DNA from: a virus
Strand: one strand, 5' to 3'
Length of the DNA stretch: 64,000 bases
Virus record (IMG/VR): IMGVR_UViG_3300018411_000639
Coordinates: 32,001-96,000 of that record
Positions 2,901 to 28,851 of the stretch are shown one piece after another (within the stretch, counting starts at the first letter, position 1; each line of letters begins with the position of its first letter). The notes below the pieces were generated by a model. The model searched no databases, had not been told where the DNA came from, and saw only the letters and a program-made list of their open reading frames with translations. A program made the translations under genes and the position numbers.

Positions 2901-2905
2901 TTAGC

Positions 2906-7300: not shown

Positions 7301-9578
7301 TGCTTGTTGTCGCACTTGTCGTGCCTCCTGACGCAAACGCACGGACACGCCCGAATTGATAATAGTTCGCCCAACTCTTCTTTCCATTCGTTACGCCTTT
7401 TTGCGGATTCATCGCTTCAACCGTGTCTTCGTTCCCGAGGTAGATAGCAAGATGCCCGTCCGAAACCAACAAATCCCCTGGTTGTAGCTCGCTTTCGGAA
7501 ATCTTTTGCACACGGGCGGCGTCGTCAACCAAACCTTGATGGTTGGTGCGATACCCAGCCGGAGCAATCCCTAGCTGAATCCACAGCCAACAAATCAGAC
7601 CCGAACAGTCAAACGAGTTTGGCCCTGCCGCACCCCAGACGTAAGGCTTCCCTCTTTGGGCTTGAGCCAAGTCGATGAAGGCTTGCGTGCTTGCGTTTGC
7701 GCTTGTACTGCCTCCGATGGCACCACCTCCGCTCGACCCTCCGCTTCCGCCTGAGCTGCCAGACCAAGTCAGTGACCCGTCATCCCCTGCGATCGCTCCT
7801 TCCGGAATCTCATCGCCCCAATCCTTGTCCGGAACGGTGAAACTGTTCGGTGTCGGCTGCACATTCTTATGCAAGGTCGAGTTGGCATCTGGGTCCATGT
7901 CCTCGTATTTCATCGGGTAGAACACGTAGAAGTCCGGATCAAGGTAGACGGAGTAGTAACCGCCCGGCCCTTTGCCGGGGATGTAAGACACCTCTTTCGG
8001 ATACTCGGTGTAACCCAGAGGAGATAAACCCTTGTTCTTCCGGAAGGCTTGGATAGCAAGGATCGCCACGTTCACTTCTTTGTAAGTTGGAAGAAAGAGG
8101 TCAGGATAAAGCTCTACATGTTTCATCAGCTGTCGCTCTATTTCGTTGTCCTGTCTTGCTTTCCTTTCGAACCCGTCGTAATCCTGTGTAATGGTGTCGG
8201 CCATCGTCCCTTTTTGATTGACCGGGGAGAAGCCTTGGATACTCTCTTGTCGTTCTTGACGGGCGTTAAAGCTGATGCACTGAATTTGTATCTGGTAAAG
8301 GTCTGGGAACTCGGGAACGGTACTGACATTGATATCGTCAATCATAAGATAAGAAGTACCCGTCAGCGAGATGAGTTCGTTCTCGACCTTCACGAACCCG
8401 AAGGAGTTGAATTTCCTGTAGGTTCTTACCAGTGTCTTCGTCATGTTCTCCAGCTGCTGGAACTTGGCGATTACCTTCGCACTGGTTGTTTCCAGTGTAA
8501 AGGTGAAGGTGGTGTCCATGCCGCCCATGAATTGCATCGTGGGCGTGGACTGGTCAGCCAACTGTATCGTCGGAAGAAGGTTGGACAGACCGAACTGCAA
8601 CTCGGTCATCTGAACATTGTCCTCGTTCGTTACGATCGTAGTGAAGCTCTTGTCTTTCAGGAGGTTCTCTCCGATGGTGTAGTCTTCATCATCCACACCG
8701 GCAAGCAGGGTTTCAGGATTCAATGCCTTGAAAACGAAAGAGCCAGTGAGACTCGACTGATCTTTCCCGACAGGTTTCAGGTAGTTCGGCTCTTTTCCGT
8801 CCGAGGACATAGCCCTCTGATAGTAGTAGCGGAACAGATCCCAATCAATGTAATCCTCGAAGAAGATGCCAGGTACTTCTATATAAGGCTCCACGTTAAA
8901 CTCTTGCATAACAAGCGTTGCCTGCAGCGTATCGGGGAACCCCGGCATGGTGTTTACCGAGAACCCTGACAGAGCGACATTGAAGATGGCGTGGGTTGTG
9001 TTCAGGAAGTCATTCACGACTGGCAAGAACGGCGTGCATTTGAATTGAGCTAACAGAGGACGAAGGCCGTCCACATAATACGGACTCTTCGGAAAAGGGG
9101 ATTCCACTTCATACCCGTTGATCTGTTCGTACCCATTGAACACGAACTGGACCACAATCTCTCTTCGGGAATAACCGTGCTTCACTTTTGTCGAACCTTC
9201 TTGTCGGATGGAAACCACACTGTCGGTGGTTGAACTGGTTCTGACGGAGATGAACTCCGGAGGGATCACCAAGGAACAATCCCCTATCCGAAGTGTAAAT
9301 TCATCCGCACCGGTTCGGTGTGGGTATTCGAGGTAGTCGTAATAGTTCGGCGGCTCAACCCGTCGCTCTGGCGTGATTCGGCGAAGTCTGTCCATTACTT
9401 TCTGCGTGTCCTCGTCCTTGATACCTGTTGCCGTGGTGTCGTTGTAGCCTGGATCGGAACCTTTGAATGTTTTCTGCTTTGGCTTTAGCTTTCCGAGGAT
9501 GTCAGACAAGGCATCTGTTGTGTCCTTGCTGACTCCGATGGAAGTTAAAAATGTGTCTAGTAGATCGTCTGCCGGCAT
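4308..9578 (-). CDS. Baseplate hub / tail-associated lysin with NlpC/P60 peptidase and lysozyme-like (glucosaminidase-type) domains
   Basis: 1756 aa; GKPYVWGAAGPNSFDCSGL (Cys658) and GHLAIY (His709); AIVIHETGNG..NNPGGI..YCP..ANDP muramidase-like segment; hub-like RIHLRMGYGS and VRKVVHS..GFVTTI motifs. Confidence 0.8.
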   Translation of the reverse strand: MPADDLLDTFLTSIGVSKDTTDALSDILGKLKPKQKTFKGSDPGYNDTTATGIKDEDTQKVMDRLRRITPERRVEPPNYYDYLEYPHRTGADEFTLRIGDCSLVIPPEFISVRTSSTTDSVVSIRQEGSTKVKHGYSRREIVVQFVFNGYEQINGYEVESPFPKSPYYVDGLRPLLAQFKCTPFLPVVNDFLNTTHAIFNVALSGFSVNTMPGFPDTLQATLVMQEFNVEPYIEVPGIFFEDYIDWDLFRYYYQRAMSSDGKEPNYLKPVGKDQSSLTGSFVFKALNPETLLAGVDDEDYTIGENLLKDKSFTTIVTNEDNVQMTELQFGLSNLLPTIQLADQSTPTMQFMGGMDTTFTFTLETTSAKVIAKFQQLENMTKTLVRTYRKFNSFGFVKVENELISLTGTSYLMIDDINVSTVPEFPDLYQIQIQCISFNARQERQESIQGFSPVNQKGTMADTITQDYDGFERKARQDNEIERQLMKHVELYPDLFLPTYKEVNVAILAIQAFRKNKGLSPLGYTEYPKEVSYIPGKGPGGYYSVYLDPDFYVFYPMKYEDMDPDANSTLHKNVQPTPNSFTVPDKDWGDEIPEGAIAGDDGSLTWSGSSGGSGGSSGGGAIGGSTSANASTQAFIDLAQAQRGKPYVWGAAGPNSFDCSGLICWLWIQLGIAPAGYRTNHQGLVDDAARVQKISESELQPGDLLVSDGHLAIYLGNEDTVEAMNPQKGVTNGKKSWANYYQFGRVRAFASGGTTSATTSTRKATGNLSFDGTESAPRVVETKSKVSADTMNQTLGGVLAGRGSTFISLGQQYGVDPAIVAAIVIHETGNGTSNAIRNYNNPGGIMDWNNNWSTLKRFATFDEGLAFTFSNLKKGYIDQGLVTIEAIGSKYCPVGAANDPTGLNVHWVPNVTAYYAQLTGQAYDGSSLGTPGSSVAASPAVSTYSWSQTDAGKTLGTKTGTLNFDNFGKPVFEKADQFWNKEVFQEEAEGDELLNRMTVDMVEYSARGRLLRAFPTFMFLIVDDGGEWLDGQKLWSNFYTYRSLLDVSVFQENDQPVHTASITVSNAYNEISKAPKIPSPYVSDNISDYWDFYKNVGDHAPDNVNVVAGLPDALVGTALEAVSDTFVVGWYKLTGSLLGGPQVTDNMIALKNMIFDTANVKPGCRIHLRMGYGSNPMSLPISFNGVISDIDAGDIVTIIAQSDGAELVNDVVSTKEDQENGAFKFGSEPSDVIASLLRSRKNKLGNMLSEKWGEPNAFGIEHFGIYSNNGLFADLAKESQYDLCKNLYIGKYKCQPFIGSNGWLIGADGEENINFNIYNKTVWDCMQMVAQGVPEFVAQPMYHQFESRVFYGLPQWIAKYRYDIVDEKLYEAGKTFSQFHYFDSLCDIVDNQIKVSSSEVKTNIVAMYSLGGELKSTPTLYSDKSIDWSKQHTSVIDTTISQDYLGWDWLYEKLGFDVGKAAAIKIGVSNLLDSWSETYQGSLLLLGDASVKPCDTFYMYDAYTGIRGVAEVRKVVHSMSAQGGFVTTITPGLMNMSNAQNSGKGNVIKSMFAWAGIASTNSFTRKLTMGAASAVIHGGGSAFKTINQGVRSGTFAANAVEGATKGVSLSKDFYQAVKSGKVFKDYKGYISTSADYIKSLDLMSHVKTAQTGLKAIKAIRTTEQAADVLKTGLALAGGTVLPGVGAVAGWIAGEVVTNIILEGLFDMFQWNNCVTLFPLDKEGQAFVGGVKGGKNIIPGGTGDAVYNSEAPTDDDAE
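6013..6028 (+). repeat. Variant of dispersed motif (ATGTCGGAAATGACAC)
   Basis: 14/16 match to GTGTCGGAATTGACAC, same orientation. Confidence 0.5.
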
Positions 9579-9601: not shown

Positions 9602-12600
9602 TTAAAACAAACCGGATAGCTTCTCTTGCAACCAGCTGTCGCTGACTTGAGAAGTGTCGTCTTGGGTATTCAGGTTCACGTTCAAGTTCGGGCCGTTGAC
9701 TTTCTCAACCGTTCGTTTGACGGCCGATAGAACAGCGGAACTGTCTTGGCTGCCTTTTGCTTTCACATGAAACTGAACGCCTTCGTTTCCGACATAAGCT
9801 TTTCTTTCTTTGGACGAAGGAGCGATGCGTGGCGAAACCGCAGGCTTCTGGTCAAACTGTCCGTTGGAGTCGGAGGACCCGCTTCCGTTCGGACGGTGAG
9901 AAGCCTTCAGAGCAGAAGGAGGAGCAGAGAACTGCATCCCTGCAAGCAGACTGGAAAGCCCTACGGCTACACCGACCCCAATCATCGTTTTCCCGAATTT
10001 ACCCATCGGCTTGCGGGCAATTTGTTCAACGGCATCCATCCCTGCACTGGCGACACTCTTTCTTTCTCCGGCACTTTGTCCTGTCTTGCGGATTGCGTCG
10101 TTGATGTCTGAGATACCACCCATGACTTCGTCCTCAAGGCCTCGGGTATTCTGTACGGTATGCCTGTCCATCGCTTGTCTTGCTTCCTCGATGGATGCGC
10201 CGTCCAGTGCTTCGAAGTAGTGGCCGATCTGTTCCGCAGTCTTTCGGGCTGCCTGTGTGTTTCTGGCACCAGAACTTCCTGCTTCGTAGATGCCACGCAA
10301 GTCATTCATGCTGACCTCGTTGATCTTGAGTCCTGCTTGATTGCCGAAAGCGATACGCGCCTCACCTAAGCCTTGGATATTCCGTTCGCTCAGGAAAGAT
10401 TGGATGATGTCGTTGCTGTTCCAATTAAGGTACTGCATCGCTTCGTCAGACTGACTGCTTGCCAAGGTGTCGAAGTCCTCGTCCAGTTGCTTCAGGATGC
10501 CTTGGTTTTGTGTAGAGGCTTGTCTCCAAGGGGTAAGCACGGTTTCTTCTTCCACCGCTTTACTTACGTTCTGATCGTTCAGGCGTTCTGCTGCGCTCTC
10601 GTCCAGGCCTCTCACCTGCTCGGCATAGCGAGTCGTTAACTGTTCGCTTACGTCATGAAGGTTGTAGAGTTGACCTCTCGCCCCTTCTGTCCGTTGGATG
10701 ATCTTCTGAATACCGACATCCCCGCTTGAAGGAGTTGGTATTGTGTCGGAATTGACACCTTTGACGGACGCAGCGTCTCTTGCCATCACGGAGTGACGGA
10801 CTTGTTCTCGTGATTCCGCACTGGCTCCTCGTTCACGGATCTGGTCATTGAACTGACGAATCAGCGAACCGGAGTCCTTGTGTCCCCTACTTCTTAACTC
10901 TCCGGCGAACTGGCTTGTGGCTTTACCTTCGTCCGTCCCGAAGAAACTTTCCTGTGCTCTTTTTGCGATTGCATGATCGTAGCCTTCGTGAGAGAGAATC
11001 GAGGATGCGACTGTTTCTCTTAGTCGATTGGCTCTCTTCCCTCTTTTCGTTACGGTAGACTCTAATACGTCTATTTTATCAGAAGGGGACTGTGATGACA
11101 ACGTCTTCGAGGCGACCAGTGCTTCGACCTGACGAAACTGAAAAGTATCGGCATCCGTCATCGCTTCATCGACAAACTGCTGAGCCCCTTTCGTTATGAT
11201 CTCTTCACGGAAGGCAGGTACATCGCTCCTTGTTCCGATACGGAAACTCTCTTGGATCTTCTGACCAAGGACTTCCATGTCAGCCCCATAGACACGCTGT
11301 TGCTTCTTCGTCTTCGTCTCCTGAAGGACAACGAATGGCTGACGGGAGCGCTCCCCTTGGCCGTAAGATTTCACTTGGTAGATACCCGGATCGTAAACAC
11401 CCTCATTTGGCATCAAGTAATTACTCTTGTCCAAGGCTACTCCGTCGATTCGGATAGCGGAGGGTTGTTTTGCTCTCCGGATGGCTTCCTGTTTTGCTCG
11501 GATAACCTCACTGCTTCCTTCTGCTGTTTCGTTCACAACAGACTTCAGGCGATCCATCAGACCTCTGGGGTTCGGTTGACTTCGGATAAGCGGAGAGTTC
11601 CAGATTTGGGTTGCACGAGGATCTTGGAACATCTTGCTCAAGGATAACAGGGATTGATTCATCGGGATATTCATATCGACTGATCCGTTCAGAATGTCAG
11701 CTGCCACAGGAGCCGTTCCTTTCGGGAAGATCGGACCTTCCATAGCGTCGATTACGTTCTGAAGACCCATCTCATGTTCTCCGTTGGCGAGTTGCGTCAG
11801 ACCTAAGCGGTACTTCGGAACCTTGGTAAGCTCTTCCCCACCATCCTTGATATGTTTAACGTCGATCGGCTTTTGTTCGGATTCATCTGTCATCTTCAAG
11901 AGATTATCTAGGTGGACTTGATCCTCTTTGCTGTCCTTAAACACTTCCTCACCGATTTCACGCAAGACATAGTTTGGTGTGGAGATGTAACCGATAGCCC
12001 CTTTGTTGTGCTTGTTCTTGATGGCGGTTGTAACGACAGCTTCGTTGTGCAGATAATTGTCTTTCAGTTTCCCTGTCGCCGTGTCCGTAGGGAGATTCTG
12101 CTCTCCCTGGATGTATGCAGCATGACGAAGGATAGCATCCCCGGCCTCATCTTCTGGATTGGAAGATCCAAACTTGATGGAGTCACCCACGTACTCGTCG
12201 ATTGCAGCAGCCATGTGGCCGTCTTTCCCTGCATTGGTAAAAGATTGCGCCTCGTAGAGTTTACGTGTCGCTAACTCAGCGGGGTCTTGTTCGTTCAACA
12301 GGCGAACGACATTGCGACCTTTCTCTTTATCGTAGCTGGATTCTAGGTTGAGGATCATGGCCTCCATATCTCCATCGACGTCGGCGTTCCAACTATTCGC
12401 TGTGTACCCTTGAAACATGAGGGTGCGACCCTTTAGTTTGTCGTTCAAGCGGACACTGACAGCTAAGTCGGAACTGGTCTTAAATACCGGGTCACGTTTA
12501 CCTGTCCCGAAAATACCGCGCTCCCTGACGTATTCCAAGCCCGCTTTCTCGAAAGCCTCGTCTGTCGCAGCAACGTAGGCGGGGGAGTTCTTCCAGTCAC

Positions 12601-15600
12601 GGGTTGCTTTCTTCAACTCTTTCTTTGTGGCGCCGGCAATCCCTTCCCGGGAAGGGTCTCCCGCTAAGACAAGCGACCCTTGCCCATCAAGAATACCCTT
12701 TCGGATCAACTGCTCTCGGAAGGCGTTGTCGTTTGCTAATCTTTCGTTTACGACTTGATCGCCGATGTCGCGGAAGTTTACACCCATCTCTTCCAGTTGC
12801 TCACGAGAGGTCTCAAGAACATCTCCGTACCCGATGCGACCATCTGCACCTCTCAGAGTCAGGCCCTTCGTGCTCTCTTTATTGGCGAAAGACAACTCAA
12901 TGCCGTTTTCGAGATCCGCTTTCGCTTTCTCTGCGGCTACAGCCAGTGACTCTCCTTTCATCATCTCTTCTGTTACAGGTGAAGTGATGACGGTACCGTG
13001 AGCGTACCCAGAGAACGGCATACGTCCAGATAGCATGAAGCGATTCATGATGCCGTCCTTATGATTCAGTTCATTCTCAAAGGAACCCATCATATCCTTG
13101 TAGGCATCGTCCATCCGCGACTGCATCTGTTTGATGCTTTCTCCGCTTCTAACTGATTGCCCATCCTCAAGGGCTTTTGCCGAGTTAAGCAGTGAGGCGA
13201 TTTTCTTCTGAGAGTCAGAGAAGAAGACCTGTCCATCTACGGCGTGCGTGCGAACCAATGGAATAACCACATCACCGACTCGTTCCCCTGTTTCCGGGTT
13301 CTTGATGGTTATGCCGCCCAAGTTGACTCGGAACGCATCCACGCCCTCGAAGCTTCCATCGTTCTCGTTGGCTACAGAGAACAGCGTCTGCATCATTTCC
13401 TCAACACTGGCTCCACTCTTAGGGATAAGCAAGTCCTCTAGGTTTACGTCCTGAACCCCTCCGGGACTCTTCTCCCCCATTACGTGAGTAAGGGATGCCA
13501 TGATTCCTCGTAAGGACTTGGCTCCCTCTGCATATTCCGGGGACCGCTGAATAATCCGCATTCTCCGGTCAAGGATCGGCTGTGCAACTTTTTCAAACCG
13601 CTCTCCGGTGAATATACGGAACTCTGCATCGCCCACATTGGAACCCAACATCTGATTGGATTTCGGTGTGACGCTGACCCCTTTTCCTGTATCGCCTTCT
13701 GCTCCTTTTGCCGAGTGCATCTCGGACATAATCATGCGACGAACAGGTACGCGGTAGGAGTTGGCTTGTTCCATCTGGCGCATTTCGGCAGCGACTTGTC
13801 TGACCTTTTCGTCGGGACTGTCTTGGATGGCTCGCACCATATCCCTGACACCTTCTAAGTGACCGGCATCAGAGGAAGGATTTCCCTCGATAAGGAGCGT
13901 CTTCTTCCCTGCCTCATCGAGCAGGAAGTCTCCCGTCTCGCTTCGGCTGTAACGTGCGTTCCAACTTGGCAGATGTTCGTCAGCAAGGCGTTCGAACTCG
14001 CCCTCTACACCTAGTTCGTCAAAGCGTTCCGCCATGTAGTTCACGGAGCTACCTGCGACCACGGAGCCGGATAAATGCTTCCCTAGTTCGAACTTACCGA
14101 CCAAGGCTGCGTCTCCGTAAGATTCTTTCCAGACGGCCTGAACGAGGTCATCGTATTCATCGCCCAAGTCGACGGTGGATGCGACAGTCTTCTCTACGCC
14201 ACTGATGCCGAGTTTGAGCTCTCTCAGCTGACCTTCGGCAACAAACCGCGCTTCGTCACCTTCTCCGACCATCTTGCCGGGGTTCACGTACATGGCGTCG
14301 TCTGCGATTTCTCCGACCTGACCACTTGCCTTGTTGTACACGATGTCGATGGTGCTTCCGTCCAACTCACGCGTACCGATGACATCACCCGTCTTCACGA
14401 AGTCACCCGGCGAAATGGTCATTTTTGCCGTTTCAAGGTCTTTGATCTTGAAGGTGTTCAATTCGTTCTTGTTCCACAAATCCTTGCGGAGAATCGGATT
14501 GACGAGCGAATGCTGCAGGTTCGTATCCGAGTAAAGACGGAACTCTTGCATGACGGCATCGAAGTCTTCGGAAGTATACTTGCCACCAAGTCCGGCCAGA
14601 ACATCTTCCTTGCGGGATTCCGTTGCGTCCAGAGCCTGCAGCATTTCATGGGTGTGCATCTGACGCACGTTCGCCATGACCGTTCCTTCGTAACTCCCCA
14701 TACCGGCGGCTTCCATCTTTCCGTAGTAGTTCTCTGCGGCTTCTCTCGTCACGACACTTTCACCGACACGGATATTCAAGGAGTCCAGTTTGGCTTCCTT
14801 GCCGACAAGATCGTCTTTGTCAAAAGATTGGAAAGACTGGAACTGCATCTGCACCGGACGAGTGAACCCGGTCATAAAGCCATACGAGTTCATGGCGACA
14901 CGATCCAACGTGGAAACAAATCCATCCGCAACTTTGTCTTCCCTCAGGATTTGATGCGCGCCTGTGTCCAGTAGGTTTTTGAACTCTGACACGGTCTGTG
15001 CGTCCGTGATTTCTTCGCCGTAATCCACTACCTTTTGGATAAGACCTTCTCCGTAAACAAGGTTCTTGACGTACCATTCCTGAACGGCGATATCCATATC
15101 CTTCATTTTCTTCAGACTGTTGTGCCCACCGTCGGTAAGTTGCTGACTCCAATTAGCCATGTAACTTGCTACCTTTTCATCGGTTCCCCCTACGACAGGG
15201 CTGAATACTTCGTTCAGCGTTTTTCTTACGCCTTCGTCCCGTTGATAGATCGCAGGCAAGAAGTTGATGGCAGAACTCATATCGACTAGATGGTTGGATG
15301 CAACGTCCGACATGTTCGGAATGACTTTCTTCAAGGCTTGCCCACCTTCTACAACGGTCTGCACCCCACTTAATCCGGGAGCAGCTAGTATCGGCTTGCT
15401 GAAGGCGCGGTTCACGGTCGCATTGACTGCTTGGAAATCACCACGGGAAACCATATCGGCGATCCGCTTGTTCTCGTAGATGTACTGCGTCAAGGATTCA
15501 TTCAACGTATCCTGATAATGTGTCACGAGCTTACCTGTATCCTTGTCCGTGTAGGCGTTCAGGCTGCCAATGATGGACTTCTCTATCCGACCTTTCGACA

Positions 15601-18600
15601 CGGATGCAACCGGGCCATCCATATTGATCTTGCTCATAGGGACGACTCCGGCAAACTCACGAATCTCATCCATTCCTTTTTCATCTGTGAGAGCTTCCAG
15701 TAATCGGTGAGAGTGTTTCTGATCTGTAAAGGCGAGCATCAAGTTATCGTCCGGCCCGTTGAATAGCTGTACGGCGTAATCGTGCGCCCCGACCATCCCC
15801 ATCTTCTTGTTGAAGAAAAGGCTCTCGACTTGCTTCAGGTGATGATCGTCGTAGTTCAGCTCTGCACGCAGTTGTTCTGCCACAGGCGCGAATCCTTTTT
15901 CGGACACCCCAATCGAAACCAGAGGGCGCGTACTGTTGATTGCTTGCTCTACGGTCTTCTGGATGTCATCCGGTGTATTGCCGATCGACGCATGGAACTC
16001 ATCCAGACTATTGCCCTTGTGTTTGAAACCGGATGTATCGAACTCGAGCATCGGTTGCGTTTCTGAATTAATGTAACCCCATAGCTTGCGGTCTTCATCG
16101 CTCAACGTTCCTTCGACGCTTTGTTCGTAAAGGGTGTCGGACGTTACGTCACCGAAATCGAAATCACGCATCTGCTCCGCACTAAAACGGGACTTCACGC
16201 TATCGACGGCTTGGAATAACTCTCCTCCGATTGCTTGTGCGATGTGGTAAGGATCGGTAGCGTCACCGATGACACTGTGCTTGAAGCCTGCAGGCAACAG
16301 CTGACGACCGACAAGATCATCGGCGATAGACTTCAAGGCTTCTACTTGCAGGAACTTTTTACGAGAAGGGAGTTTTTCATGTTTCCCAACCCCTCTTACG
16401 GCATTCAGGATGCCGGCCCCCGCCGAATTGTTCGAGGATGCATTGATCCGTGTATACCCGTTTCCGCCCACAACGTCCGCTACCTCGATGGAGTGAATGT
16501 CCGCAAAGGTCCGGTCGGCAATCCGTTTGTTTCCAGCGATAGAGTTTCCTGTTTCAGGGTCTTTCGTAAGCAAGCCCCAAGCTTTCCGTAGAGCCAATGT
16601 CTTCTGTGTTTCCATGTAGTTGCCTGCAATCTTCGGTGTCAGGTTGCTTGGCACTTGTGTCAGGGCTGCGTTCGTGCCGATGGTATTGATAGCTGTCTCC
16701 ATAGTGATATTGGTGTCTTTCAGGACATTGTAGAGTTCCTTGAATGTCGTCTTCTGTTGCGGAGATTTCAGTCTGCCTAGCACTTGATCCGCATTCAAGG
16801 TCTTGTCCAATTCACTGACAGAGCCGTTCTTCACAAGGAACGCGATATCTTCCATTCGGGCCGGTCTGCCGAAGGTTTCTCTGAAGGCGATGTTTACGTC
16901 CGAGTAAGTGCCGTACATCGTTTCAGCGTAACTGAATCCTCGCCCGTTCCCTAGTTGAAACATTCCCTCAAAGTTCCGTCGCGCGCTATCGGAAATCGTG
17001 CGGCCTACTTGTTGGTCCACCATGGCAGAAGTCACCTCTCCGGGGTTCAACGGAATGCGGTTCACAGCTTGATTGGACTCCAAAGCGCTTCGCAGTTCCG
17101 CTTTCCGTCGGTACTTGCTTCGACCCTGCAAACCAACTTGAGTGGCGTAAGAGCGCAAGCCTTTGAGTGGCATCTGGCTGAAGTCTGTCAGTTCCTCGGC
17201 TTCAACGACTGTATGGATGGAGAGGTCATTCTGGAACAAGGCTTGAATGTCGTCCGGGTTCGATCTGAAAATCGTACCTGTCACATTCTGATTTCCTTCG
17301 CCTGCTCCTCGGAACCGAAGAGCGAACAACCCTTCTGCTCCCGGTTGGTTCTTCGCGACTCGACTTGCGATGCTCCCGTCAAGTTCTGCTGTTGGGATGA
17401 ATTTCATCTCATCCACCTGATAGAACTGATTGCGGTTCAATGCGTAATCAAGGTGCGGCTGAATCTCTCCGTCAATCGCCATGAAGTCGTATCCGTCTTT
17501 GTCGATCTTAACCGCTTTGTTGGCGAACACCACGCTCTCGCCCGCATTGTCTGGTGTGACGGTTCGGTTGTTTGGGTTGGAGCGAATAGCTTCCACACCT
17601 TCGAGGACGTCTTGGTAACTTTTCTGAGCAAGAGTCATGGTCGCTTTCGTATCGGATTCCGCAAGATGGGCGTCAATGTCGATACCGAAGGCCGAAGCCC
17701 ACGAACCCAGACTACCCGGACTGCTTCCTGCACTAAAGCTTTCGATGCCTTGGTTGCTGGCGATACCGCTTAACGAAGACAACATTCTTCCTTGATTGGT
17801 TGCGCTCAGACCGGTTCTGGCATCATAGTGGTTCAGCGCCTTGACGGCAGGGATGCCTTGCTCCTGCAGCACGGCGTTCAGGAAAGGAATGTCATAGTTT
17901 GTGCCATTGTAGCTGAGAAGGGCTTTCCCCGGATTGTTGGTTTCGGTGATGGCGTTCCGTAAGGAAATAAGTTGCTGTCTTCCGACGTCTGTCTGGAGTC
18001 CTTGCTTGCGGCCTACTTTAGCAAGATTGGACAAACCTGACCTTGCCCGACGAAGATCCGTTGGGTCAGGGTCGAGCAGTTTGCCCAGAGCGAAACGTTT
18101 GGAACGAGGATTCATCACAAAGGCGTTGGGGTCAGAATAGACTGTCAGCCGTTTAATGGTGGACTGCTCAGCTGCACTCAACGTATCCCACCCATCTCCC
18201 TCTGCGCGGGCTATCAACTCTAGGAAGCCTCTTCGTTGCCGTTCTTCTACACCAAAGGTAAGGACTTCGCTGATTGGCTTATTTGCCTGAATCATACCCG
18301 AAGCATTCTTCGTTACCTGTTGCCGCACAAGAGCGACTTCCGTCATGGCCAGCAATCCTTTTTCGGACTCCGTTGCGTTTGGTCCGAAGTTCCCAAGGGT
18401 TTCCAAGTCGAAACCTGTAACGTCGCCTCCGTCCACCTCGAAGATGTTGCGGATGTTCTCTGCCTGCTTCTGGATTTCATTGAGGTCAAAACCTTTTGCT
18501 GCTTCAGGGTAAGTGGTGAACGCAAACGGCACACGGGATTGTCTGGCGAGAAGTTGGTTCAGCGTATCTCTTTGTTTCTGGTAAAGCTCCTGTGCGTCGG

Positions 18601-18676
18601 GATTATCCCACATTGTCCCAAGGTTGCTGTTGAAACTGCTTCTTGTTGTGTCTCGGTTGATGTCAGCTAAATACAT
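9602..18676 (-). CDS. Giant putative virion protein: DEDDh exonuclease + Rho_N-like module + single-chain two-barrel (beta/beta'-like) RNA polymerase + C-terminal hydrophobic helix
   Basis: 3024 aa; FDLET / YNGTNYD / HLAESD; RPVQMQFQ, PGDFVKTGDVIG, KLGISGVEK; DGIMNRFMLSGRMPFSG, KRDP, NADVDGD, all in canonical order. Confidence 0.8.
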   Translation of the reverse strand: MYLADINRDTTRSSFNSNLGTMWDNPDAQELYQKQRDTLNQLLARQSRVPFAFTTYPEAAKGFDLNEIQKQAENIRNIFEVDGGDVTGFDLETLGNFGPNATESEKGLLAMTEVALVRQQVTKNASGMIQANKPISEVLTFGVEERQRRGFLELIARAEGDGWDTLSAAEQSTIKRLTVYSDPNAFVMNPRSKRFALGKLLDPDPTDLRRARSGLSNLAKVGRKQGLQTDVGRQQLISLRNAITETNNPGKALLSYNGTNYDIPFLNAVLQEQGIPAVKALNHYDARTGLSATNQGRMLSSLSGIASNQGIESFSAGSSPGSLGSWASAFGIDIDAHLAESDTKATMTLAQKSYQDVLEGVEAIRSNPNNRTVTPDNAGESVVFANKAVKIDKDGYDFMAIDGEIQPHLDYALNRNQFYQVDEMKFIPTAELDGSIASRVAKNQPGAEGLFALRFRGAGEGNQNVTGTIFRSNPDDIQALFQNDLSIHTVVEAEELTDFSQMPLKGLRSYATQVGLQGRSKYRRKAELRSALESNQAVNRIPLNPGEVTSAMVDQQVGRTISDSARRNFEGMFQLGNGRGFSYAETMYGTYSDVNIAFRETFGRPARMEDIAFLVKNGSVSELDKTLNADQVLGRLKSPQQKTTFKELYNVLKDTNITMETAINTIGTNAALTQVPSNLTPKIAGNYMETQKTLALRKAWGLLTKDPETGNSIAGNKRIADRTFADIHSIEVADVVGGNGYTRINASSNNSAGAGILNAVRGVGKHEKLPSRKKFLQVEALKSIADDLVGRQLLPAGFKHSVIGDATDPYHIAQAIGGELFQAVDSVKSRFSAEQMRDFDFGDVTSDTLYEQSVEGTLSDEDRKLWGYINSETQPMLEFDTSGFKHKGNSLDEFHASIGNTPDDIQKTVEQAINSTRPLVSIGVSEKGFAPVAEQLRAELNYDDHHLKQVESLFFNKKMGMVGAHDYAVQLFNGPDDNLMLAFTDQKHSHRLLEALTDEKGMDEIREFAGVVPMSKINMDGPVASVSKGRIEKSIIGSLNAYTDKDTGKLVTHYQDTLNESLTQYIYENKRIADMVSRGDFQAVNATVNRAFSKPILAAPGLSGVQTVVEGGQALKKVIPNMSDVASNHLVDMSSAINFLPAIYQRDEGVRKTLNEVFSPVVGGTDEKVASYMANWSQQLTDGGHNSLKKMKDMDIAVQEWYVKNLVYGEGLIQKVVDYGEEITDAQTVSEFKNLLDTGAHQILREDKVADGFVSTLDRVAMNSYGFMTGFTRPVQMQFQSFQSFDKDDLVGKEAKLDSLNIRVGESVVTREAAENYYGKMEAAGMGSYEGTVMANVRQMHTHEMLQALDATESRKEDVLAGLGGKYTSEDFDAVMQEFRLYSDTNLQHSLVNPILRKDLWNKNELNTFKIKDLETAKMTISPGDFVKTGDVIGTRELDGSTIDIVYNKASGQVGEIADDAMYVNPGKMVGEGDEARFVAEGQLRELKLGISGVEKTVASTVDLGDEYDDLVQAVWKESYGDAALVGKFELGKHLSGSVVAGSSVNYMAERFDELGVEGEFERLADEHLPSWNARYSRSETGDFLLDEAGKKTLLIEGNPSSDAGHLEGVRDMVRAIQDSPDEKVRQVAAEMRQMEQANSYRVPVRRMIMSEMHSAKGAEGDTGKGVSVTPKSNQMLGSNVGDAEFRIFTGERFEKVAQPILDRRMRIIQRSPEYAEGAKSLRGIMASLTHVMGEKSPGGVQDVNLEDLLIPKSGASVEEMMQTLFSVANENDGSFEGVDAFRVNLGGITIKNPETGERVGDVVIPLVRTHAVDGQVFFSDSQKKIASLLNSAKALEDGQSVRSGESIKQMQSRMDDAYKDMMGSFENELNHKDGIMNRFMLSGRMPFSGYAHGTVITSPVTEEMMKGESLAVAAEKAKADLENGIELSFANKESTKGLTLRGADGRIGYGDVLETSREQLEEMGVNFRDIGDQVVNERLANDNAFREQLIRKGILDGQGSLVLAGDPSREGIAGATKKELKKATRDWKNSPAYVAATDEAFEKAGLEYVRERGIFGTGKRDPVFKTSSDLAVSVRLNDKLKGRTLMFQGYTANSWNADVDGDMEAMILNLESSYDKEKGRNVVRLLNEQDPAELATRKLYEAQSFTNAGKDGHMAAAIDEYVGDSIKFGSSNPEDEAGDAILRHAAYIQGEQNLPTDTATGKLKDNYLHNEAVVTTAIKNKHNKGAIGYISTPNYVLREIGEEVFKDSKEDQVHLDNLLKMTDESEQKPIDVKHIKDGGEELTKVPKYRLGLTQLANGEHEMGLQNVIDAMEGPIFPKGTAPVAADILNGSVDMNIPMNQSLLSLSKMFQDPRATQIWNSPLIRSQPNPRGLMDRLKSVVNETAEGSSEVIRAKQEAIRRAKQPSAIRIDGVALDKSNYLMPNEGVYDPGIYQVKSYGQGERSRQPFVVLQETKTKKQQRVYGADMEVLGQKIQESFRIGTRSDVPAFREEIITKGAQQFVDEAMTDADTFQFRQVEALVASKTLSSQSPSDKIDVLESTVTKRGKRANRLRETVASSILSHEGYDHAIAKRAQESFFGTDEGKATSQFAGELRSRGHKDSGSLIRQFNDQIRERGASAESREQVRHSVMARDAASVKGVNSDTIPTPSSGDVGIQKIIQRTEGARGQLYNLHDVSEQLTTRYAEQVRGLDESAAERLNDQNVSKAVEEETVLTPWRQASTQNQGILKQLDEDFDTLASSQSDEAMQYLNWNSNDIIQSFLSERNIQGLGEARIAFGNQAGLKINEVSMNDLRGIYEAGSSGARNTQAARKTAEQIGHYFEALDGASIEEARQAMDRHTVQNTRGLEDEVMGGISDINDAIRKTGQSAGERKSVASAGMDAVEQIARKPMGKFGKTMIGVGVAVGLSSLLAGMQFSAPPSALKASHRPNGSGSSDSNGQFDQKPAVSPRIAPSSKERKAYVGNEGVQFHVKAKGSQDSSAVLSAVKRTVEKVNGPNLNVNLNTQDDTSQVSDSWLQEKLSGLF
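10743..10758 (+). repeat. Dispersed 16-bp motif GTGTCGGAATTGACAC
   Basis: Perfect copy; identity with the copy at 25564 extends to 21 bp (TTGTGTCGGAATTGACACCTT). Confidence 0.85.
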
Positions 18677-18695
18677 GCCAACCCTCCTTCATTCG

Positions 18696-21600
18696 TTATA
18701 CGAGTTTGGATGTGCGAATCTTCTCTTCGATTTCCTGTCGCTTATCCTTCTTCATTTTTACATCTACACCCACATCGCGGGTGCTGTAGCGGTAATCTAC
18801 CTCTATATCTTCTAAGCCCATCTCGGTAAGGACATCCATAAGTTTGTTTCTCACCGTCAGGGCATTACTGCGGACATTCATTTTCGGAAGAGGGATTTCT
18901 CCTTCTGCATTGGCTTGGTCGATTTGATCCTGCCAAACATCGAACTCCCCGAAGTCCAGTCCCTGCTGCTTAATCATCTTGATTTTCACACTGTCGAGGT
19001 CTGTCTCCTCGTTCCACCCTTCCCACTCTGCATCGGGCAGAACGTTCTCCTGGAAGTACGCATCCAGAGAAGGCTTATCTTCGACAGGCATTCCCCATGT
19101 ACTCTCTAAAGCTCGTCGCAGGTACTTTGGAGCCAGACTCAGAATCTTGCCCTTCTCTTCTTCCGGAGCCTTCATAAAGTACTTCATGTACTGGCGGTCT
19201 GTCTTTGGTAACGCAGCTAGAATGTTGGCCAGAGGATCTCCACGATCATAACCGTACATCGTCTTCTCCGATTTGTTGTAGTAGTCGATGGCTTTGGTGG
19301 CATCTGAGGACAGGCGAGTGACGCTTCTGTCGCTTTGGATCTCGGTCAGCTCCTTATTGATTTGACCGACAATGAGTGACTGAGAGGCTTGCATGTCAAC
19401 GTACTTTGGCGCACCTGTCTTGAACTCGAACTGATCTCTGTCTGCGTAGTTCATCTTGATGAATTTCTTGAAGTCCATCAGATCCCGTTTGCGGGCTTTC
19501 TTGTCCTGTCCGTTGAACTCGGCACTCTTCATGAAGGCTTTCACGTCGAAGCCTTCTTCTTTGAGCGTCTTTTGTGCGTACTCCTCGTAGAGTCCGCGGT
19601 ACTTCACGTATTTCAAGGTGTCGATGTATTCGTTCAGATTGCGTTCCTTCTGGCGTGTTTCTGGTATCCAGCGTTCGCCTGTCGTAGCTTCTTTTGTTCC
19701 GACAATAGCTTTCCCGATGGCGGTGACAGAGAAACCTGTCAAGGCTCCCAATATCTTTCCGTAACGGGTAGATCCGAACGCTGACCCGAGCAACGTCCCC
19801 CAAATCAAACCACTTGGTCGGTTGATGCTTTCCCGAATGGCAGGAATCAGGAAGTCACGTACAGGATGCGTCCAGTTCTGGAAATCCTTGCCGTACACTT
19901 CTCGTTGCTCGTAACTCTCTGCCGCACTTCTTACCTGAAGGACTTTCGTATGAAACGGTGTGTTCAGATGGGACACAGCCTCCCATGCTTTCCCGAAGGC
20001 GATCTCCATCGGATTGTAGCGGGCATGGATGGATGCAGGAGTGAAGTCATCCTCTTTCTCCGTAGCAAGGCCGCGCTTCACCATGGTCTTGTTTACATTC
20101 AATCCGTTGCTGTAGACCACGGCCCGAATACTGTTGACGGTATCTTTTGTGACCTGATTGGCTTCATCCATATCGTAACCGATTCTCACGGATCGACCGG
20201 GTTTCAGCAGCTGAGCCAGTTGCTTGCTCGCTTCCTCTCCCGTTCCATCTGCCATCGCTTCGCTTACGTGTACTCCGGCTAGTTTGATTGGATTGTCGGG
20301 CATCTCGTTCGCGATAAAGGTGTTGTTGCTCAGCATCTTTTTGACGGTCACAGTCTTCATTTCAAGGTTCGCCGTTTTGAATCGGTACGGATAAATCCGC
20401 ATCGGCTCTTTGGCTTCGGTGACGCGATTGTCGATGGCAGACACTTCTTCTTGCTCTTCTGTTGTGATCTTCATCTTGGACAGCATAGCCTTTGTTTCTG
20501 CATATTCTCGCGAGTACGGAGCCACATCGCCTAATATCCTCAGGCGGTCAATCGGATCGTAAAGTTCTCCTCTGCCAATCGACCCATCCGCTATACCGTT
20601 CCGGATGTAATCACGGGCTGTCCGAAGGTTATTCAAGGACTCCTGAAGCAAATCATCGCTATATTTGAATTTTGCTGTATACGTCTGATTTGGGTCGTCC
20701 CGGTTTATATATTGAACATACCCGTTCCCCTTTTCTTGTCCTAGCGCCCACATATAATAATTCACTTGTTTGTGGTGGTCTGCTCGAGCCTCTCCTGTTT
20801 TGAGGACCTCTCTAAAGCCTTTGTCACTAATTGTCTTGATGTCGACTACACCTATCTTTGTTCTCGAAGATTCGTCATGAATGACGGCATCGTAGAAACC
20901 GAGGACGCCGTTCTCTTCGTCTTCGATCTTCCCTTCTGTATCAAGGGCGAGGCCGGACTTCAACCACATATCTTCTATTTTTTTGTGGTACTCCGTTCCT
21001 TCATCAACGATACTCTGCAAGCCTTCGTCCGTAATCGGGTCTTGGTTCAGCAAGTGCTTGATGATTTCCTCGGGTTCTTTTCCTAGAGTGGACGAACCGA
21101 CACGAAGCGCCGTAGGGTCTTTGATGTTCCACGTTCGCTCGTAGCCTTCTCCAGGTAGTCGCATCTCTCCCTTGGCTACTTTCGTATAAGGGTCACCTGT
21201 TTGGAAGTTGGTAAAGTAATCCTCGCCCGGCATCCATTCTGGCATCGTGTTCTTGATTGGGTTGATGTACGCAACATCATTCCTTCTTTTCGGCAAGAAG
21301 CGTCGGAAGATTTCCGAGAACTCTCCTCCGAGCCCGCCAGCGTTCTGATCCCAGAACTGGCGATTGAACGACATAGACCAACCCGGGGTGTCTATAACTT
21401 CTTTTTCAGCTTGCGCTTCACCGGTAACGAATCCTTGGATTGCAAAGCCGTAAATACCAGCTATATCGCCCCACTGGTTCGCCTGTTCGCTCAAGCTATG
21501 CCCTACACTGTTTGGTGAAGCAACATCCCCTATTGTAGGTTCAGGCGTTACTGGTGGAGTCGTGTCCACTCGCGTGTCCGCACTTACAGCTTTGCTTAGC

Positions 21601-24428
21601 GCATACTTCCTTAGATCGAAGTTGACTTCGGATAGGCCTAAGCTATTGTCTATGTTGATGACCTGCATTCCGCCGCTCGGCGTCTGGTAAACTTCGTAGG
21701 ATTCATCCTTCGGTCGTGCGCCTGCAGTTGTGCCAATATCGACACCCAGTTCCTGTAGTTTTGGGGTCAGCAGATCGCCTGCGACAGCCGCATCGTCGGG
21801 CATCGCTCGTGATGGAGAACCTCCCGATGAAACTTGGGCTGCAGCTTCCTCTCCGCCTTCGGTAGAAGGAGCCGAACCCTGTTGCCCAGGAATCGCCGCT
21901 TGCAGACTCGGATCGACAAGTGGTTCCGTGTAAGAGGTTGCTCCGCCCTTCTGCCAATACTCTTCATGCATCCGAAGACGCGGCTTGAGGATACGACCGA
22001 TAGTAGCGCCGAAGGCCGGCCCGATGACAGGGATATTCTCGCCCTCTGGGGAAGTCATGAGGTATGGTCTGTCGTTGTAGTGCTTGCGGTCATAATAATA
22101 CTTGTCGGTGACGAAGTGACGAATCGGAGCCAATGGCTGCGTGAGTGTCGGGAACCATGCGTTCTTGAAGTATTCTTCACGGCTTCCGAACTTACTGTCG
22201 GAGAATTCTGCGTCACCCATGATTCTTCTGTAAAGGTTGGGTTGGAAGTATTGGATCTTTCCACCTGTCAAAGGCGTATTACCCATGTCCCAATAGCGTC
22301 CCTTTCTTACTTCCGTCATACCGCTCTCGTAATATTCTTCCCGTTCCTCTGTGGTGCTGGTCCAGTCTACGACGTTGATGCCGGGAATGTCTGCGATCTG
22401 TTCCGATCCTGGAGTCAGGTCGGCAATCTCTTTGGCGACTTTGGTGATGCCCAAGGAGTCCTTTACGCGATGCCAGCCGAGGTCAAAGTTCTTAACGTTC
22501 CTTGCGGTTCGCATCGTGATGTTGTCAGGGCTTCCGTTCTCGTCCTCGTCTCCGCCCTCGGTCAGGTAGTTCAGGTATTGATACCCCTGATAGGCTCCGT
22601 AGACAGGAAGGAATCGTTTCAGGACGAGGTTCGCTGCGATGTGTCCGACAGAGGCTTTGCTTTCGTTACTCATGCCCGGACCGAACATCCCGATAGCTTG
22701 ATCCATTCGGTCAAACATGAAGTACGGCAAACTCGTTCTGGATGTGACGTTATCTCCGATGGTGTCCGGCCCGCCCTCTACCTTCTTGCGTCCGGCAACG
22801 AATTGGTGCGCCCAATCTTTCAGGTCATACCCTTTGTCTTCTTTGAAGGCATCACGGAGGTTGTGGCTGTCACGGAAGGCGACAATCAGATCCTCTCCTT
22901 CTGGTGCGTTACCGAAAGCCCCCGATAGGTCGTGCTGAGATGTGACGGACTTGGACGCATGGAACATGTTCGTCTTGCCCAACTTGCGTCCCATCTCTTC
23001 GATGTAATGGTCCGGCTTGAAGATGTCAGCAAGACCTGTTTCTTGTTGATAGAGGTGCTCAACGGCCTTATCTTGAAAGCCGAGGTCAAGTGTTTCCATC
23101 ATCTTGCCGTAAAGCCGTTGGTAGGTTTTACTTTTCTCATCGTGATGCTCGTAGTCCACCAAGTTCAGGTTTGCCATCTTCCGCATCTGATCGACTTCCC
23201 GAGGCAGCCCATACGGGCCCTGTTTCTCTTTGGGTATCTTCCAGACATGGTAGTTGCTCCCGACTTTCTCAAGACCACCCATATCATCGTTGATCCTGAA
23301 CACATTCCCGTCCGAGAAGAGGAGAGGTTTGTCACCAAAGACATCCTTTATTTTGCTGTCTGTTCTGCCTGCGAGCTTGGTAACGTGAGGTTGGTACGTG
23401 TTGGCGTGCAGAAGTCCTGAAGATAGCTTGGTCCGGTTCATCTGATCGACGTCGAACAAGCGGAGCGGATTGATGCCTACAGCCGGAATCTTGAAGTCTG
23501 TTGCAAGGGAGTGGACGAGATTATTCTTCGCCTTATCTGCCTTCCGGACGTCAATGAACTCCCCGAACTCGTCCACCATGATGTTTTTATCAAGCACGAT
23601 GTTCTTGTACTTGTTAGATGAAAGCAGTGTTTCGGTTACGCCTTCCTCTGTGGTGTAGGCTGTGTTGATAAACTGATTGATCCTGTCAAGCGTCCCATCT
23701 TTGTCATCCAGACGGATGCGGTCGGTACGGGATTGCACGCCCCCGTTCTTCGCTACATGGATAAGGTCTTCCAGTGTGGCAGAACGGTAGCCTGACCGTT
23801 TCATCTTCTTCTGCCCCTCTTCGGCTGCCTGCGTCATCTTTCTGCTGACATCCTGCATGAGTTGCGACTGGACAGGTTTCCTCGCCTGAGCGACCCCTGC
23901 TTTGTTCAGTCCATCTAAAGTTGACTTCATGCGGCCCATCTCGTACCCAAGGTCAGTGTCCGAGTAAGTATGGAGCGTAACGTCTTTTGCTGCCTCGGAT
24001 AGCTTTTTGTTTTTGCTGATGACTTCCTTGTTCAGGTTCTTGATGTCGCGTCGTGTTTCTGACATCATCTCATTGAAGTTCCGGGGATTCGTCATGCGCT
24101 TCAGGTTGGCTTTCGTAGGCTCCATCCGCAACAGACTTGCCTTCGGAGCTTCGGTATTGTTCTTGCTCCAACGACGCATGGTCTGCATCGTAGTGTCCCC
24201 GTACCCCTGAAAGTCATCTGCGTAGCGGAGCAGCTCTTTGATACCGCCTTTCAGCAAGCCCGATCGGTAAGCGGCGATACCCGCGATGCCGATAGCGGAA
24301 GCGATGAGTGTACGCTTTAGTGAGCTATTCTCTCGGGCCATACCTGTCGTATCGTCTTCCGTATAATCGCTATCTCTCGATCTGACTCTCTGTGTTCTTC
24401 GCTTTTCCCATTTGCGTTCGGATTGCAT
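18696..24428 (-). CDS. Giant tail-associated / tape-measure-position protein with PD-(D/E)xK (RecB-type) nuclease and degenerate SNase-like domain
   Basis: 1910 aa; GTEYH, GFYD, VVDIKT, QVNYY motifs; VKKMLSNNTF..IKLAGV..GEEASKQL..NVNKTMVKRGLA; several hydrophobic segments; directly follows the chaperone genes; start could alternatively be Met30 (24341). Confidence 0.7.
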   Translation of the reverse strand: MQSERKWEKRRTQRVRSRDSDYTEDDTTGMARENSSLKRTLIASAIGIAGIAAYRSGLLKGGIKELLRYADDFQGYGDTTMQTMRRWSKNNTEAPKASLLRMEPTKANLKRMTNPRNFNEMMSETRRDIKNLNKEVISKNKKLSEAAKDVTLHTYSDTDLGYEMGRMKSTLDGLNKAGVAQARKPVQSQLMQDVSRKMTQAAEEGQKKMKRSGYRSATLEDLIHVAKNGGVQSRTDRIRLDDKDGTLDRINQFINTAYTTEEGVTETLLSSNKYKNIVLDKNIMVDEFGEFIDVRKADKAKNNLVHSLATDFKIPAVGINPLRLFDVDQMNRTKLSSGLLHANTYQPHVTKLAGRTDSKIKDVFGDKPLLFSDGNVFRINDDMGGLEKVGSNYHVWKIPKEKQGPYGLPREVDQMRKMANLNLVDYEHHDEKSKTYQRLYGKMMETLDLGFQDKAVEHLYQQETGLADIFKPDHYIEEMGRKLGKTNMFHASKSVTSQHDLSGAFGNAPEGEDLIVAFRDSHNLRDAFKEDKGYDLKDWAHQFVAGRKKVEGGPDTIGDNVTSRTSLPYFMFDRMDQAIGMFGPGMSNESKASVGHIAANLVLKRFLPVYGAYQGYQYLNYLTEGGDEDENGSPDNITMRTARNVKNFDLGWHRVKDSLGITKVAKEIADLTPGSEQIADIPGINVVDWTSTTEEREEYYESGMTEVRKGRYWDMGNTPLTGGKIQYFQPNLYRRIMGDAEFSDSKFGSREEYFKNAWFPTLTQPLAPIRHFVTDKYYYDRKHYNDRPYLMTSPEGENIPVIGPAFGATIGRILKPRLRMHEEYWQKGGATSYTEPLVDPSLQAAIPGQQGSAPSTEGGEEAAAQVSSGGSPSRAMPDDAAVAGDLLTPKLQELGVDIGTTAGARPKDESYEVYQTPSGGMQVINIDNSLGLSEVNFDLRKYALSKAVSADTRVDTTPPVTPEPTIGDVASPNSVGHSLSEQANQWGDIAGIYGFAIQGFVTGEAQAEKEVIDTPGWSMSFNRQFWDQNAGGLGGEFSEIFRRFLPKRRNDVAYINPIKNTMPEWMPGEDYFTNFQTGDPYTKVAKGEMRLPGEGYERTWNIKDPTALRVGSSTLGKEPEEIIKHLLNQDPITDEGLQSIVDEGTEYHKKIEDMWLKSGLALDTEGKIEDEENGVLGFYDAVIHDESSRTKIGVVDIKTISDKGFREVLKTGEARADHHKQVNYYMWALGQEKGNGYVQYINRDDPNQTYTAKFKYSDDLLQESLNNLRTARDYIRNGIADGSIGRGELYDPIDRLRILGDVAPYSREYAETKAMLSKMKITTEEQEEVSAIDNRVTEAKEPMRIYPYRFKTANLEMKTVTVKKMLSNNTFIANEMPDNPIKLAGVHVSEAMADGTGEEASKQLAQLLKPGRSVRIGYDMDEANQVTKDTVNSIRAVVYSNGLNVNKTMVKRGLATEKEDDFTPASIHARYNPMEIAFGKAWEAVSHLNTPFHTKVLQVRSAAESYEQREVYGKDFQNWTHPVRDFLIPAIRESINRPSGLIWGTLLGSAFGSTRYGKILGALTGFSVTAIGKAIVGTKEATTGERWIPETRQKERNLNEYIDTLKYVKYRGLYEEYAQKTLKEEGFDVKAFMKSAEFNGQDKKARKRDLMDFKKFIKMNYADRDQFEFKTGAPKYVDMQASQSLIVGQINKELTEIQSDRSVTRLSSDATKAIDYYNKSEKTMYGYDRGDPLANILAALPKTDRQYMKYFMKAPEEEKGKILSLAPKYLRRALESTWGMPVEDKPSLDAYFQENVLPDAEWEGWNEETDLDSVKIKMIKQQGLDFGEFDVWQDQIDQANAEGEIPLPKMNVRSNALTVRNKLMDVLTEMGLEDIEVDYRYSTRDVGVDVKMKKDKRQEIEEKIRTSKLV

Positions 24429-28823: not shown

Positions 28824-28851
28824 AGCATAACACTCCTTTCGTATCATATAG

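Follow-up and report, generated by a model that had tools for sequence, protein, structure and literature searches.

Virion-delivered RNA polymerases are known from few phage groups, namely the N4-like, crAss-like and phiKZ-like phages and Thermus phage P23-45. In P23-45 the tape measure protein gp96 has an N-terminal part that is the virion RNA polymerase, thought to transcribe the earliest genes at the entry pore (PMC10770324). The crAss-like phage phi14:2 encodes gp66, an RNA polymerase for which single-stranded or denatured DNA is a far better template than the double-stranded form (10.1101/2020.03.07.982082). The orientation of a tape measure within its tail has been described for phage 80alpha, with the N-terminus at the neck beside the DNA and the C-terminus at the baseplate (10.1101/2024.12.10.627806). 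In the Bacillus jumbo phage 0305phi8-36, gp146 was assigned as the tape measure on tail length only, and a separate YonO/QDE-1-like RNA polymerase, gp99, is also encoded (PMC2147016). Here we describe a protein of 3,024 amino acids (P0001 in our sequence set) from a 64,000-nucleotide stretch, hereafter the window, covering positions 32,001 to 96,000 of IMG/VR virus record IMGVR_UViG_3300018411_000639, a record that represents about half of a roughly 220-kb genome. The gene lies at 9602..18676 on the minus strand, as do all the window features given below, and is defined by the open reading frame list with its translation and by synteny with gp136-gp151 of 0305phi8-36. In a structural model of high confidence, residues ~62-370 of the protein adopt the fold of a DEDDh 3'-5' exonuclease of the DnaQ/TREX type, and this domain heads a chain that also contains a candidate RNA polymerase core and a tape-measure-like C-terminal part.

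The N-terminal exonuclease domain

A preliminary description of the window had read residues 90-342 of this protein as carrying a complete DnaQ-family catalytic set. The motifs FDLET, YNGTNYDIPFL and HLAESD do lie at the residues claimed for them, with residues 90-342 mapping exactly to positions 18409-17651, and the completeness of the set was borne out by conservation across the family, by a family profile and by an alignment-based fold. The domain itself is somewhat larger than that span, which covers ExoI to ExoIII only; AlphaFold, Foldseek, VIA-align and profile searches of PDB place it at residues ~62-370 (17567..18493).

The first core strand carries ExoI (FDLET, residues 89-93, 18398..18412) with D90 and E92, and the second carries the segment MTEVALV (18326..18346) with E113, a strand motif which we take to correspond to the 'IxEIg' signature of DnaQ-like enzymes such as epsilon and TREX1. 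ExoII (YNGTNYDIPFL, residues 256-266, 17879..17911) contains N257 and D262 and aligns to HNGDRYDFPLL of TREX1. ExoIII (HLAESD, residues 337-342, 17651..17668) contains H337 and D342 and aligns to H-x-AEGD of TREX1 and to AHDASED of the TREX1 homologue 9mrc. All five catalytic residues (D90, E92, D262, H337 and D342) are hence present, and the H-x4-D spacing of ExoIII identifies the 'h' subtype rather than the Y-x3-D subtype.

In order to assess the conservation of these residues we searched 1.84 billion representative proteins exhaustively with HMMER and obtained 31 relatives, 19 of them at E <= 1e-10. Nearly all are 2,500-3,300 amino acids long and match at the N-terminus; the short matches that were checked proved to be fragments, either from short contigs or from partial records. 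P0004 (261 amino acids, on a 63-kb ENA contig) is 98% identical over the N-terminal residues 1-228 and stops after residue 261; in this sibling genome the reading frame is broken, or the assembly is wrong, within the exonuclease domain. The alignment used below (A1, 29 sequences) excludes the fragments P0004 and P0027, a doubtful 1,689-residue match (P0025) and P0021, which has lost catalytic residues and is discussed separately.

Across A1, D90, E92 and E113 are invariant (29/29), while N257, D262, D285, H337 and D342 are found in 28 of the 29 sequences, the exception being a fragment of 291 amino acids. T93, G95, G142, G222, N257, D262, D285, H337 and D342 are each kept in at least 90% of the sequences. 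The retention of the catalytic residues and of the structural residues E113 and D285 in 28/29 sequences at low overall identity is the pattern expected of selection for catalysis. Variable catalytic residues among homologues, or no predicted RNase H-like DEDD fold, would speak against the assignment; both were checked, and we found the residues conserved and the fold predicted with high confidence.

The fold model was obtained with AlphaFold on A1 and has a predicted local distance difference test score (pLDDT) of ~90 or more across residues 62-370; a single-sequence AlphaFold model of residues 41-390 (pLDDT 38) was not used. The model places a strand at residues 84-94, containing ExoI, and a helix at residues 258-272, with the ExoII aspartate at its start. 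Foldseek matched the model to RNase T, as the top match, and to TREX1/2 with a probability of 1.0 and E 2e-5. VIA-align gave Z scores of 12-15.4 over 160-200 residues against DNA-polymerase proofreading domains, Cas2-DnaQ, ExoI, DinG, epsilon and TREX1/2. There were further matches to predicted viral structures labeled DEDDh, DnaQ or YprB-like. Consistent with the model, the A1 family profile found 9mrc in PDB at E 2.5e-6, followed by TREX1, PolB exonuclease domains, DnaQ and ExoI. The single sequence was a weak query: phmmer reached TREX1 at E ~0.4, though with ExoII and ExoIII correctly aligned.

The curated libraries weigh on the other side. Pfam RNase_H_2 (PF13482) scored 21.5 bits against a cut-off of 22, and searches of PHROGs and NCBIfam gave no family match for the domain; PF00929 (RNase_T) did no better than E 0.002, in two of seven members. 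We attribute the miss at curated thresholds to sequence divergence, since the family profile does reach solved DEDDh enzymes, and hence do not count it against the fold.

The core is interrupted by a family-specific insertion of about 100 residues (143-250, 17927..18250), lying between the core strands and ExoII and modeled with pLDDT of 95 or more as four helices and a hairpin. L166, E170, S172, R176, Y180, G214 and G222 are conserved within it. Canonical DEDDh enzymes lack this insertion, and 160-200 of the ~300 residues of the domain align to them.

From the motifs and the model it appears that the domain, once refolded, is very probably an active metal-dependent 3'-5' exonuclease. Its nearest solved relatives (TREX1-like enzymes, epsilon, ExoI, DinG, Cas2-DnaQ and polymerase proofreading domains) are DNA exonucleases, which suggests a substrate of DNA rather than RNA.

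The polymerase-like part and the constancy of the fusion

Two conserved blocks lie further along the chain. A beta'-type metal-binding block, R2061-D-P...N-A-D2099-V-D2101-G-D2103 (12347..12496), is located ~1,700 residues downstream of the exonuclease in a family of proteins of ~2,400-3,300 amino acids, and K1488...E1495-K1496 (14189..14215) provides a candidate lysine pair of a beta-like barrel. In an alignment of seven closer relatives (A2), K1488, E1495, K1496, R2061, P2063, D2099, D2101, G2102 and D2103 are all invariant. Among the wider set D-x-D-[GAS]-D is present in 26/27 relatives and the candidate lysine pair is kept in most, the lysine-pair region being different in the Bacillus phage homologues. 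The A1 profile, searched against all PDB sequences, placed the R-x-P...DxDGD block on gp55 (7ogp), a beta'-like subunit of phiKZ RNA polymerase, at E 9.4e-4. The sole match to Pfam RNA_pol_Rpb1_2 (PF00623) in the 112-kb genome falls on residues 2061-2110 (E 3.7e-3, 13.7 bits, below the cut-off of 25.3), and a weak lead in the ESM Atlas (0.76) pointed to an Rpb1 cluster.

Other searches gave this assignment no support. PF00562, the beta-type model, did not match; hhalign of the polymerase-like blocks did not discriminate between E. coli beta and beta' (E 0.14 against 0.37), the comparison with beta' not being significant; and phmmer with residues 1951-2300 found nothing in PDB. The profile support is weak, and no profile matches the candidate beta-like barrel. 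Taken together, the conserved residues still make it probable that the middle part of the protein is a two-barrel RNA polymerase. The preliminary description had stated outright that the exonuclease was fused N-terminally to the RNA polymerase. The N-terminal position, on a chain with a conserved beta'-type R-x-P...NADVDGD block, stands; the identity of the polymerase is moderately supported, by sequence comparisons.

The association of the two parts is constant. The DEDDh set and D-x-D-[GAS]-D are both intact in 26 of 27 full-length cluster representatives, which are 20-35% identical, and the exonuclease region is conserved to the same degree as the polymerase-like core. The exception is P0021, a metagenomic protein of 3,008 amino acids (21% identity over 2,188 residues), which retains the full length and has lost both catalytic sets. 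Its exonuclease shows D90 replaced by H, N257 by D and H337 deleted, and in its polymerase part DxDGD has become YVEGH, accompanied by R2061K, P2063S and K1488N. P0021 is the only family member without the exonuclease catalytic residues, and it also lacks the three polymerase aspartates, the R-x-P motif and the first lysine. Outside this set, gp146 of 0305phi8-36 has neither DEDDh motifs nor a DxDGD block, and the polymerase region, used as a query, found nothing in the 0305phi8-36 record. The double loss in P0021 and the lack of both parts in gp146 accord better with a task common to the two parts than with an interchangeable conflict domain.

The same architecture was sought among phage proteins and found in cultured Bacillus phages in addition to the 26/27 full-length relatives. 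These were reached through the tail modules of phages with a matching sheath. The family profile recognized gp095 of vB_BceM_WH1 (2,515 amino acids, annotated 'virion structural protein') at E 1.2e-42 and gp034 of vB_BauM_KLEB27-3 (2,434 amino acids, annotated 'structural protein') at E 4.8e-56, each in three matching stretches corresponding to the N-terminal part, the polymerase block and the C-terminal part. Both retain D-x-E, the strand glutamate, N-x3-(F/Y)-D, H-x4-D, R-Y-P and DxDGD. The copy in phage Edson is 94% identical to the WH1 protein. A tblastn search of 50,697 phage records with the N-terminal 450 amino acids and with residues 1200-2400 gave no match, which we regard as a false negative because the homologues, recognized by the family profile, are too diverged for it. 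A search for related loci in viral, metagenome and genome contigs found no relatives, and word-based homologue searches added few sequences. In Moorella phage MTATph1 (L005, 13513-20869) the tape-measure slot is split by a transposase gene (CDS0028) and contains no exonuclease or polymerase motifs; the last ~60 residues alone match the C-terminus of the family.

The tail module around the fusion gene

The window comprises the structural module of a contractile-tailed phage, as judged by a tail sheath match (phrog_16991, E 2e-208), and contigs bearing relatives reach 223 kb. The closest isolated phage is 0305phi8-36, with a sheath identity of 37%. When 18 consecutive open reading frames of the window were compared with the 0305phi8-36 tail module, the matching ones were colinear with gp136-gp151. 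The tail sheath genes and this synteny led us to reject a reading of the genome as a crAss-like phage. The order of genes is sheath, tube, tube paralogue, gp142, the gp143/gp144 chaperones, gp145, the 3,024-residue protein, the gp147 hub/lysin, a gpV-like and a gpJ-like protein. The fusion gene, between the orthologues of gp145 and gp147, thus occupies the slot of gp146, and it is the second giant gene past the chaperones and ahead of the baseplate hub, which is the placement of a tape measure gene.

The gene starts at an ATG at 18676, preceded by 6 nt by a Shine-Dalgarno sequence read from the DNA, GAAGGAGG (18683..18690). The upstream giant gene ends with a TAA at 18696-18698, 19 nt before the gene. 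Given its own strong ribosome-binding site GAAGGAGG, the 3,024-residue protein should be translated separately, with no read-through from the upstream gene. Residues ~500-550 (17027..17179) form an insertion peculiar to this protein with a candidate SAP/HEH-like basic helix-turn-helix pattern; most relatives lack it (gap fraction 0.64 in A2), and it is a gap in the alignment with P0002.

The C-terminal part, residues ~2431-3020 (9617..11386), is homologous to gp146, with BLASTP E values of 5e-6 and 1e-3. The family profile gave E 3.4e-16 and 5.7e-12 against gp146, and the homology is limited to the C-terminal ~600 residues. A hydropathy scan found a single membrane-like hydrophobic helix at residues ~2894-2917 (9926..9997). 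The protein thus combines homology to an assigned tape measure with a C-terminal hydrophobic segment, two features by which a tape measure is recognized.

The neighboring genes are also large. Upstream, a protein of 1,910 amino acids (18696-24428) is a full-length orthologue of the 0305phi8-36 virion protein gp145 (32% identity over 2,037 columns) and contains a match to a Cas4-like PD-(D/E)XK nuclease at residues 1137-1279 (phrog_1706, E 4e-14), so that two nuclease-bearing giant genes adjoin. Downstream, a protein of 1,756 amino acids (4308-9578) is the gp147 orthologue, combining hub and lysin, with matches to NlpC/P60 (E 1e-13) and glucosaminidase (E 1e-7). It completes a cassette of three giant genes that is present also in Bacillus phages WH1 and KLEB27-3, where the fusion gene lies within the same cassette.

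Elsewhere in the module, the tail-tube paralogue (27165-28847) is 39% identical to gp141 of 0305phi8-36 and is fused to two PG_binding_1 repeats (Pfam E 1.8e-23), which are peptidoglycan-binding. A structural-module protein of 1,384 amino acids (41549-45703) matches the carbohydrate-binding F5/8 type C (discoidin) domain just short of the threshold (27.8 bits where the cut-off is 28.2, E 3e-6) and is probably a fiber or receptor-binding protein.

Proposed role and relation to known systems

By analogy with tape measures, it is rather likely that virions contain the 3,024-residue protein, probably within the tail lumen, and that it is ejected with the DNA into the host. Indirect pointers to presence in the virion come from gp146, which its record gives as found by mass spectrometry, and from the annotation of WH1 gp095 and KLEB27-3 gp034 as structural. 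If the arrangement seen in 80alpha is shared, the exonuclease would be the part of the protein closest to the leading DNA end. We therefore considered a model in which the exonuclease end of the ejected protein would adjoin the leading genome end and the 3'-ended strand, at that end or at a nick, would be resected by the exonuclease. Resection would expose a single-stranded template, of the kind favored by single-chain virion two-barrel polymerases, and the first transcription could then start without host factors. The template preference of phi14:2 gp66 is what suggested this model.

We hold the separate parts of this proposal with different confidence. That the exonuclease works with the polymerase core, and not as a swappable weapon, seems to us an even call, and we place at the same level the broader claim of an active injected exonuclease that cooperates with the polymerase. 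Resection of the 3'-ended strand in order to supply template to the polymerase is, by analogy, the likeliest single mechanism, and we offer it tentatively. Somewhat more speculative is the full model, in which exonuclease and two-barrel polymerase would form one injected 'resect-and-transcribe' machine. The exonuclease, located where the tape measure comes closest to the leading genome end, would strip the 3'-ended strand during entry and pass a single-stranded template to the polymerase of its own chain, whose transcription of the first genes would need no sigma factor, promoter melting or host enzyme.

Several points count against the proposal. Since a 3'-5' exonuclease spares the 5'-ended strand, transcription from that strand would proceed toward the genome end. 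The joint loss in P0021 is a single case, and would also be expected if the whole protein had turned purely structural. Finally, ~900 residues lie between the exonuclease and the polymerase-like part, so their presence on one chain does not imply that they cooperate directly.

This spacer also speaks for the best-surviving alternative, that the exonuclease acts independently of the polymerase as an injected weapon, destroying the DNA of the host or the nucleic acid products of defence systems (for example single-stranded DNA products or free 3' ends), perhaps jointly with the PD-(D/E)XK domain of the 1,910-residue neighbor. The Cas4-like match in that gp145 orthologue would mean that two nucleases are delivered together, and the closest sequence relatives of the exonuclease are TREX1-like enzymes that clear DNA. 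Injected multidomain conflict proteins are well known; the domain catalogue of the polyvalent-protein survey contains no DEDD exonuclease (PMC5512222). Conflict domains are usually shuffled among relatives, whereas the exonuclease described here is fixed in position and kept at 20-35% identity; furthermore, it decays only along with the polymerase site and is absent where the polymerase part is absent. We thus regard an independent weapon as possible but unlikely, and the data point to a function linked with the polymerase or with genome entry more than to an independent one against host defences.

A coupled role could also lie on the transcript side, as the preliminary description had suggested, with the domain trimming or proofreading the 3' ends of the fused polymerase's transcripts, in backtrack rescue or 3'-end maturation. 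The domain shares a chain with the polymerase-like core, the DEDDh enzymes include RNases (RNase T tops the Foldseek matches), and both catalytic sets were lost together in P0021. On the other hand, the neighbors by profile and Z score are mostly DNA exonucleases and DNA-polymerase proofreading domains, and the exonuclease is distant from the polymerase core in the sequence. Known two-barrel RNA polymerases cleave RNA within their own active site, and none is known to employ a DEDD domain. A transcript-side role is hence improbable.

A silent structural or binding module, holding for example a DNA end or a tail or neck protein, has in its favor the family-specific insertion, which could serve as a binding surface, and P0021, which tolerates the loss of catalytic residues; it is made very improbable by the retention of the catalytic residues, E113 and D285 in 28/29 sequences despite low identity. 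The least probable alternative is that a PolD-like two-barrel core makes DNA or primers which the DEDDh domain edits. In its favor, the order of exonuclease then polymerase is that of DNA polymerase families A and B, proofreading domains of family B and of T7 DNA polymerase are among the top structural matches (Z 13-15), and archaeal PolD shows that a proofread DNA polymerase can have a two-barrel core. Against it, the metal block matches RNA polymerase beta' models (phiKZ gp55, PF00623), the tail-slot position is that of the P23-45 virion RNA polymerase and there is no evident reason for a few-copy virion protein to replicate DNA.

A conserved, apparently active DNA exonuclease on the chain of a tail-slot polymerase suggests a testable answer to the question of how early template is supplied in the first seconds of infection. 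A resect-and-transcribe machine, if true, would be unprecedented among known RNA polymerases in its dependence on a built-in DNA exonuclease. The idea of a tape-measure-fused polymerase extends here from one lineage of Thermus siphoviruses to widespread jumbo phages with contractile tails, and 'structural proteins' of ~3,000 residues that are blank in standard annotation libraries can conceal two enzymes. As WH1, Edson and KLEB27-3 are cultured and encode the same fusion, bench study is feasible now; our literature search found no paper on these three phages. Nor did it find a DEDD exonuclease described as part of any virion or tape-measure polymerase, in agreement with the preliminary description, which knew of no such fusion among characterized two-barrel RNA polymerases.

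Compared with known systems, the domain shares its RNase H-like fold (Z 12-15) with the DEDDh enzymes epsilon (2gui/2ido), ExoI (1fxx), TREX1/TREX2, RNase T, Cas2-DnaQ (8h18) and the N-terminal domain of DinG. The motifs ExoI D-x-E, ExoII N-x3-(F/Y)-D and ExoIII H-x4-D of TREX1 and its homologue align residue for residue with those of the window protein. It differs from the canonical enzymes in being 12-22% identical to them, in its extra insertion of ~100 residues and in falling below the cut-offs of curated models. It is also the head of a 3,024-residue tail-module protein, whereas the canonical enzymes are free or are appendages of polymerases and helicases.

Among virion polymerases, the likeness to gp96 of P23-45, drawn from its published description, is that of a giant tail-module protein in which a polymerase or polymerase-like part with DxDGD precedes a C-terminus that resembles a tape measure and has a membrane segment (PMC10770324). 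P23-45 has a long non-contractile tail whereas the tail of the window phage is contractile. Furthermore, gp96 lacks an exonuclease, a word absent from that paper, and, unlike gp96, the window protein has its polymerase-like block in the middle and an exonuclease at the N-terminus. The phi14:2 protein gp66 is, as proposed for the window protein, a virion-delivered polymerase with a DxDxD site, but its phage is short-tailed, and gp66 is packaged as cargo and not encoded in a tape-measure slot, and has no exonuclease domain. The 0305phi8-36 protein gp146 (2,537 amino acids) occupies the same slot and is homologous over the C-terminal ~600 residues. Closest in design are WH1 gp095, its Edson counterpart and KLEB27-3 gp034, which are shorter (2,434-2,515 amino acids) and annotated as structural or hypothetical, and which like the window protein show the order exonuclease, R-Y-P...DxDGD and C-terminal part with all the catalytic residues present. 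Collectively, these comparisons identify the domain as a diverged member of the DEDDh superfamily and the protein as a variant of the tape-measure-fused virion RNA polymerase theme.

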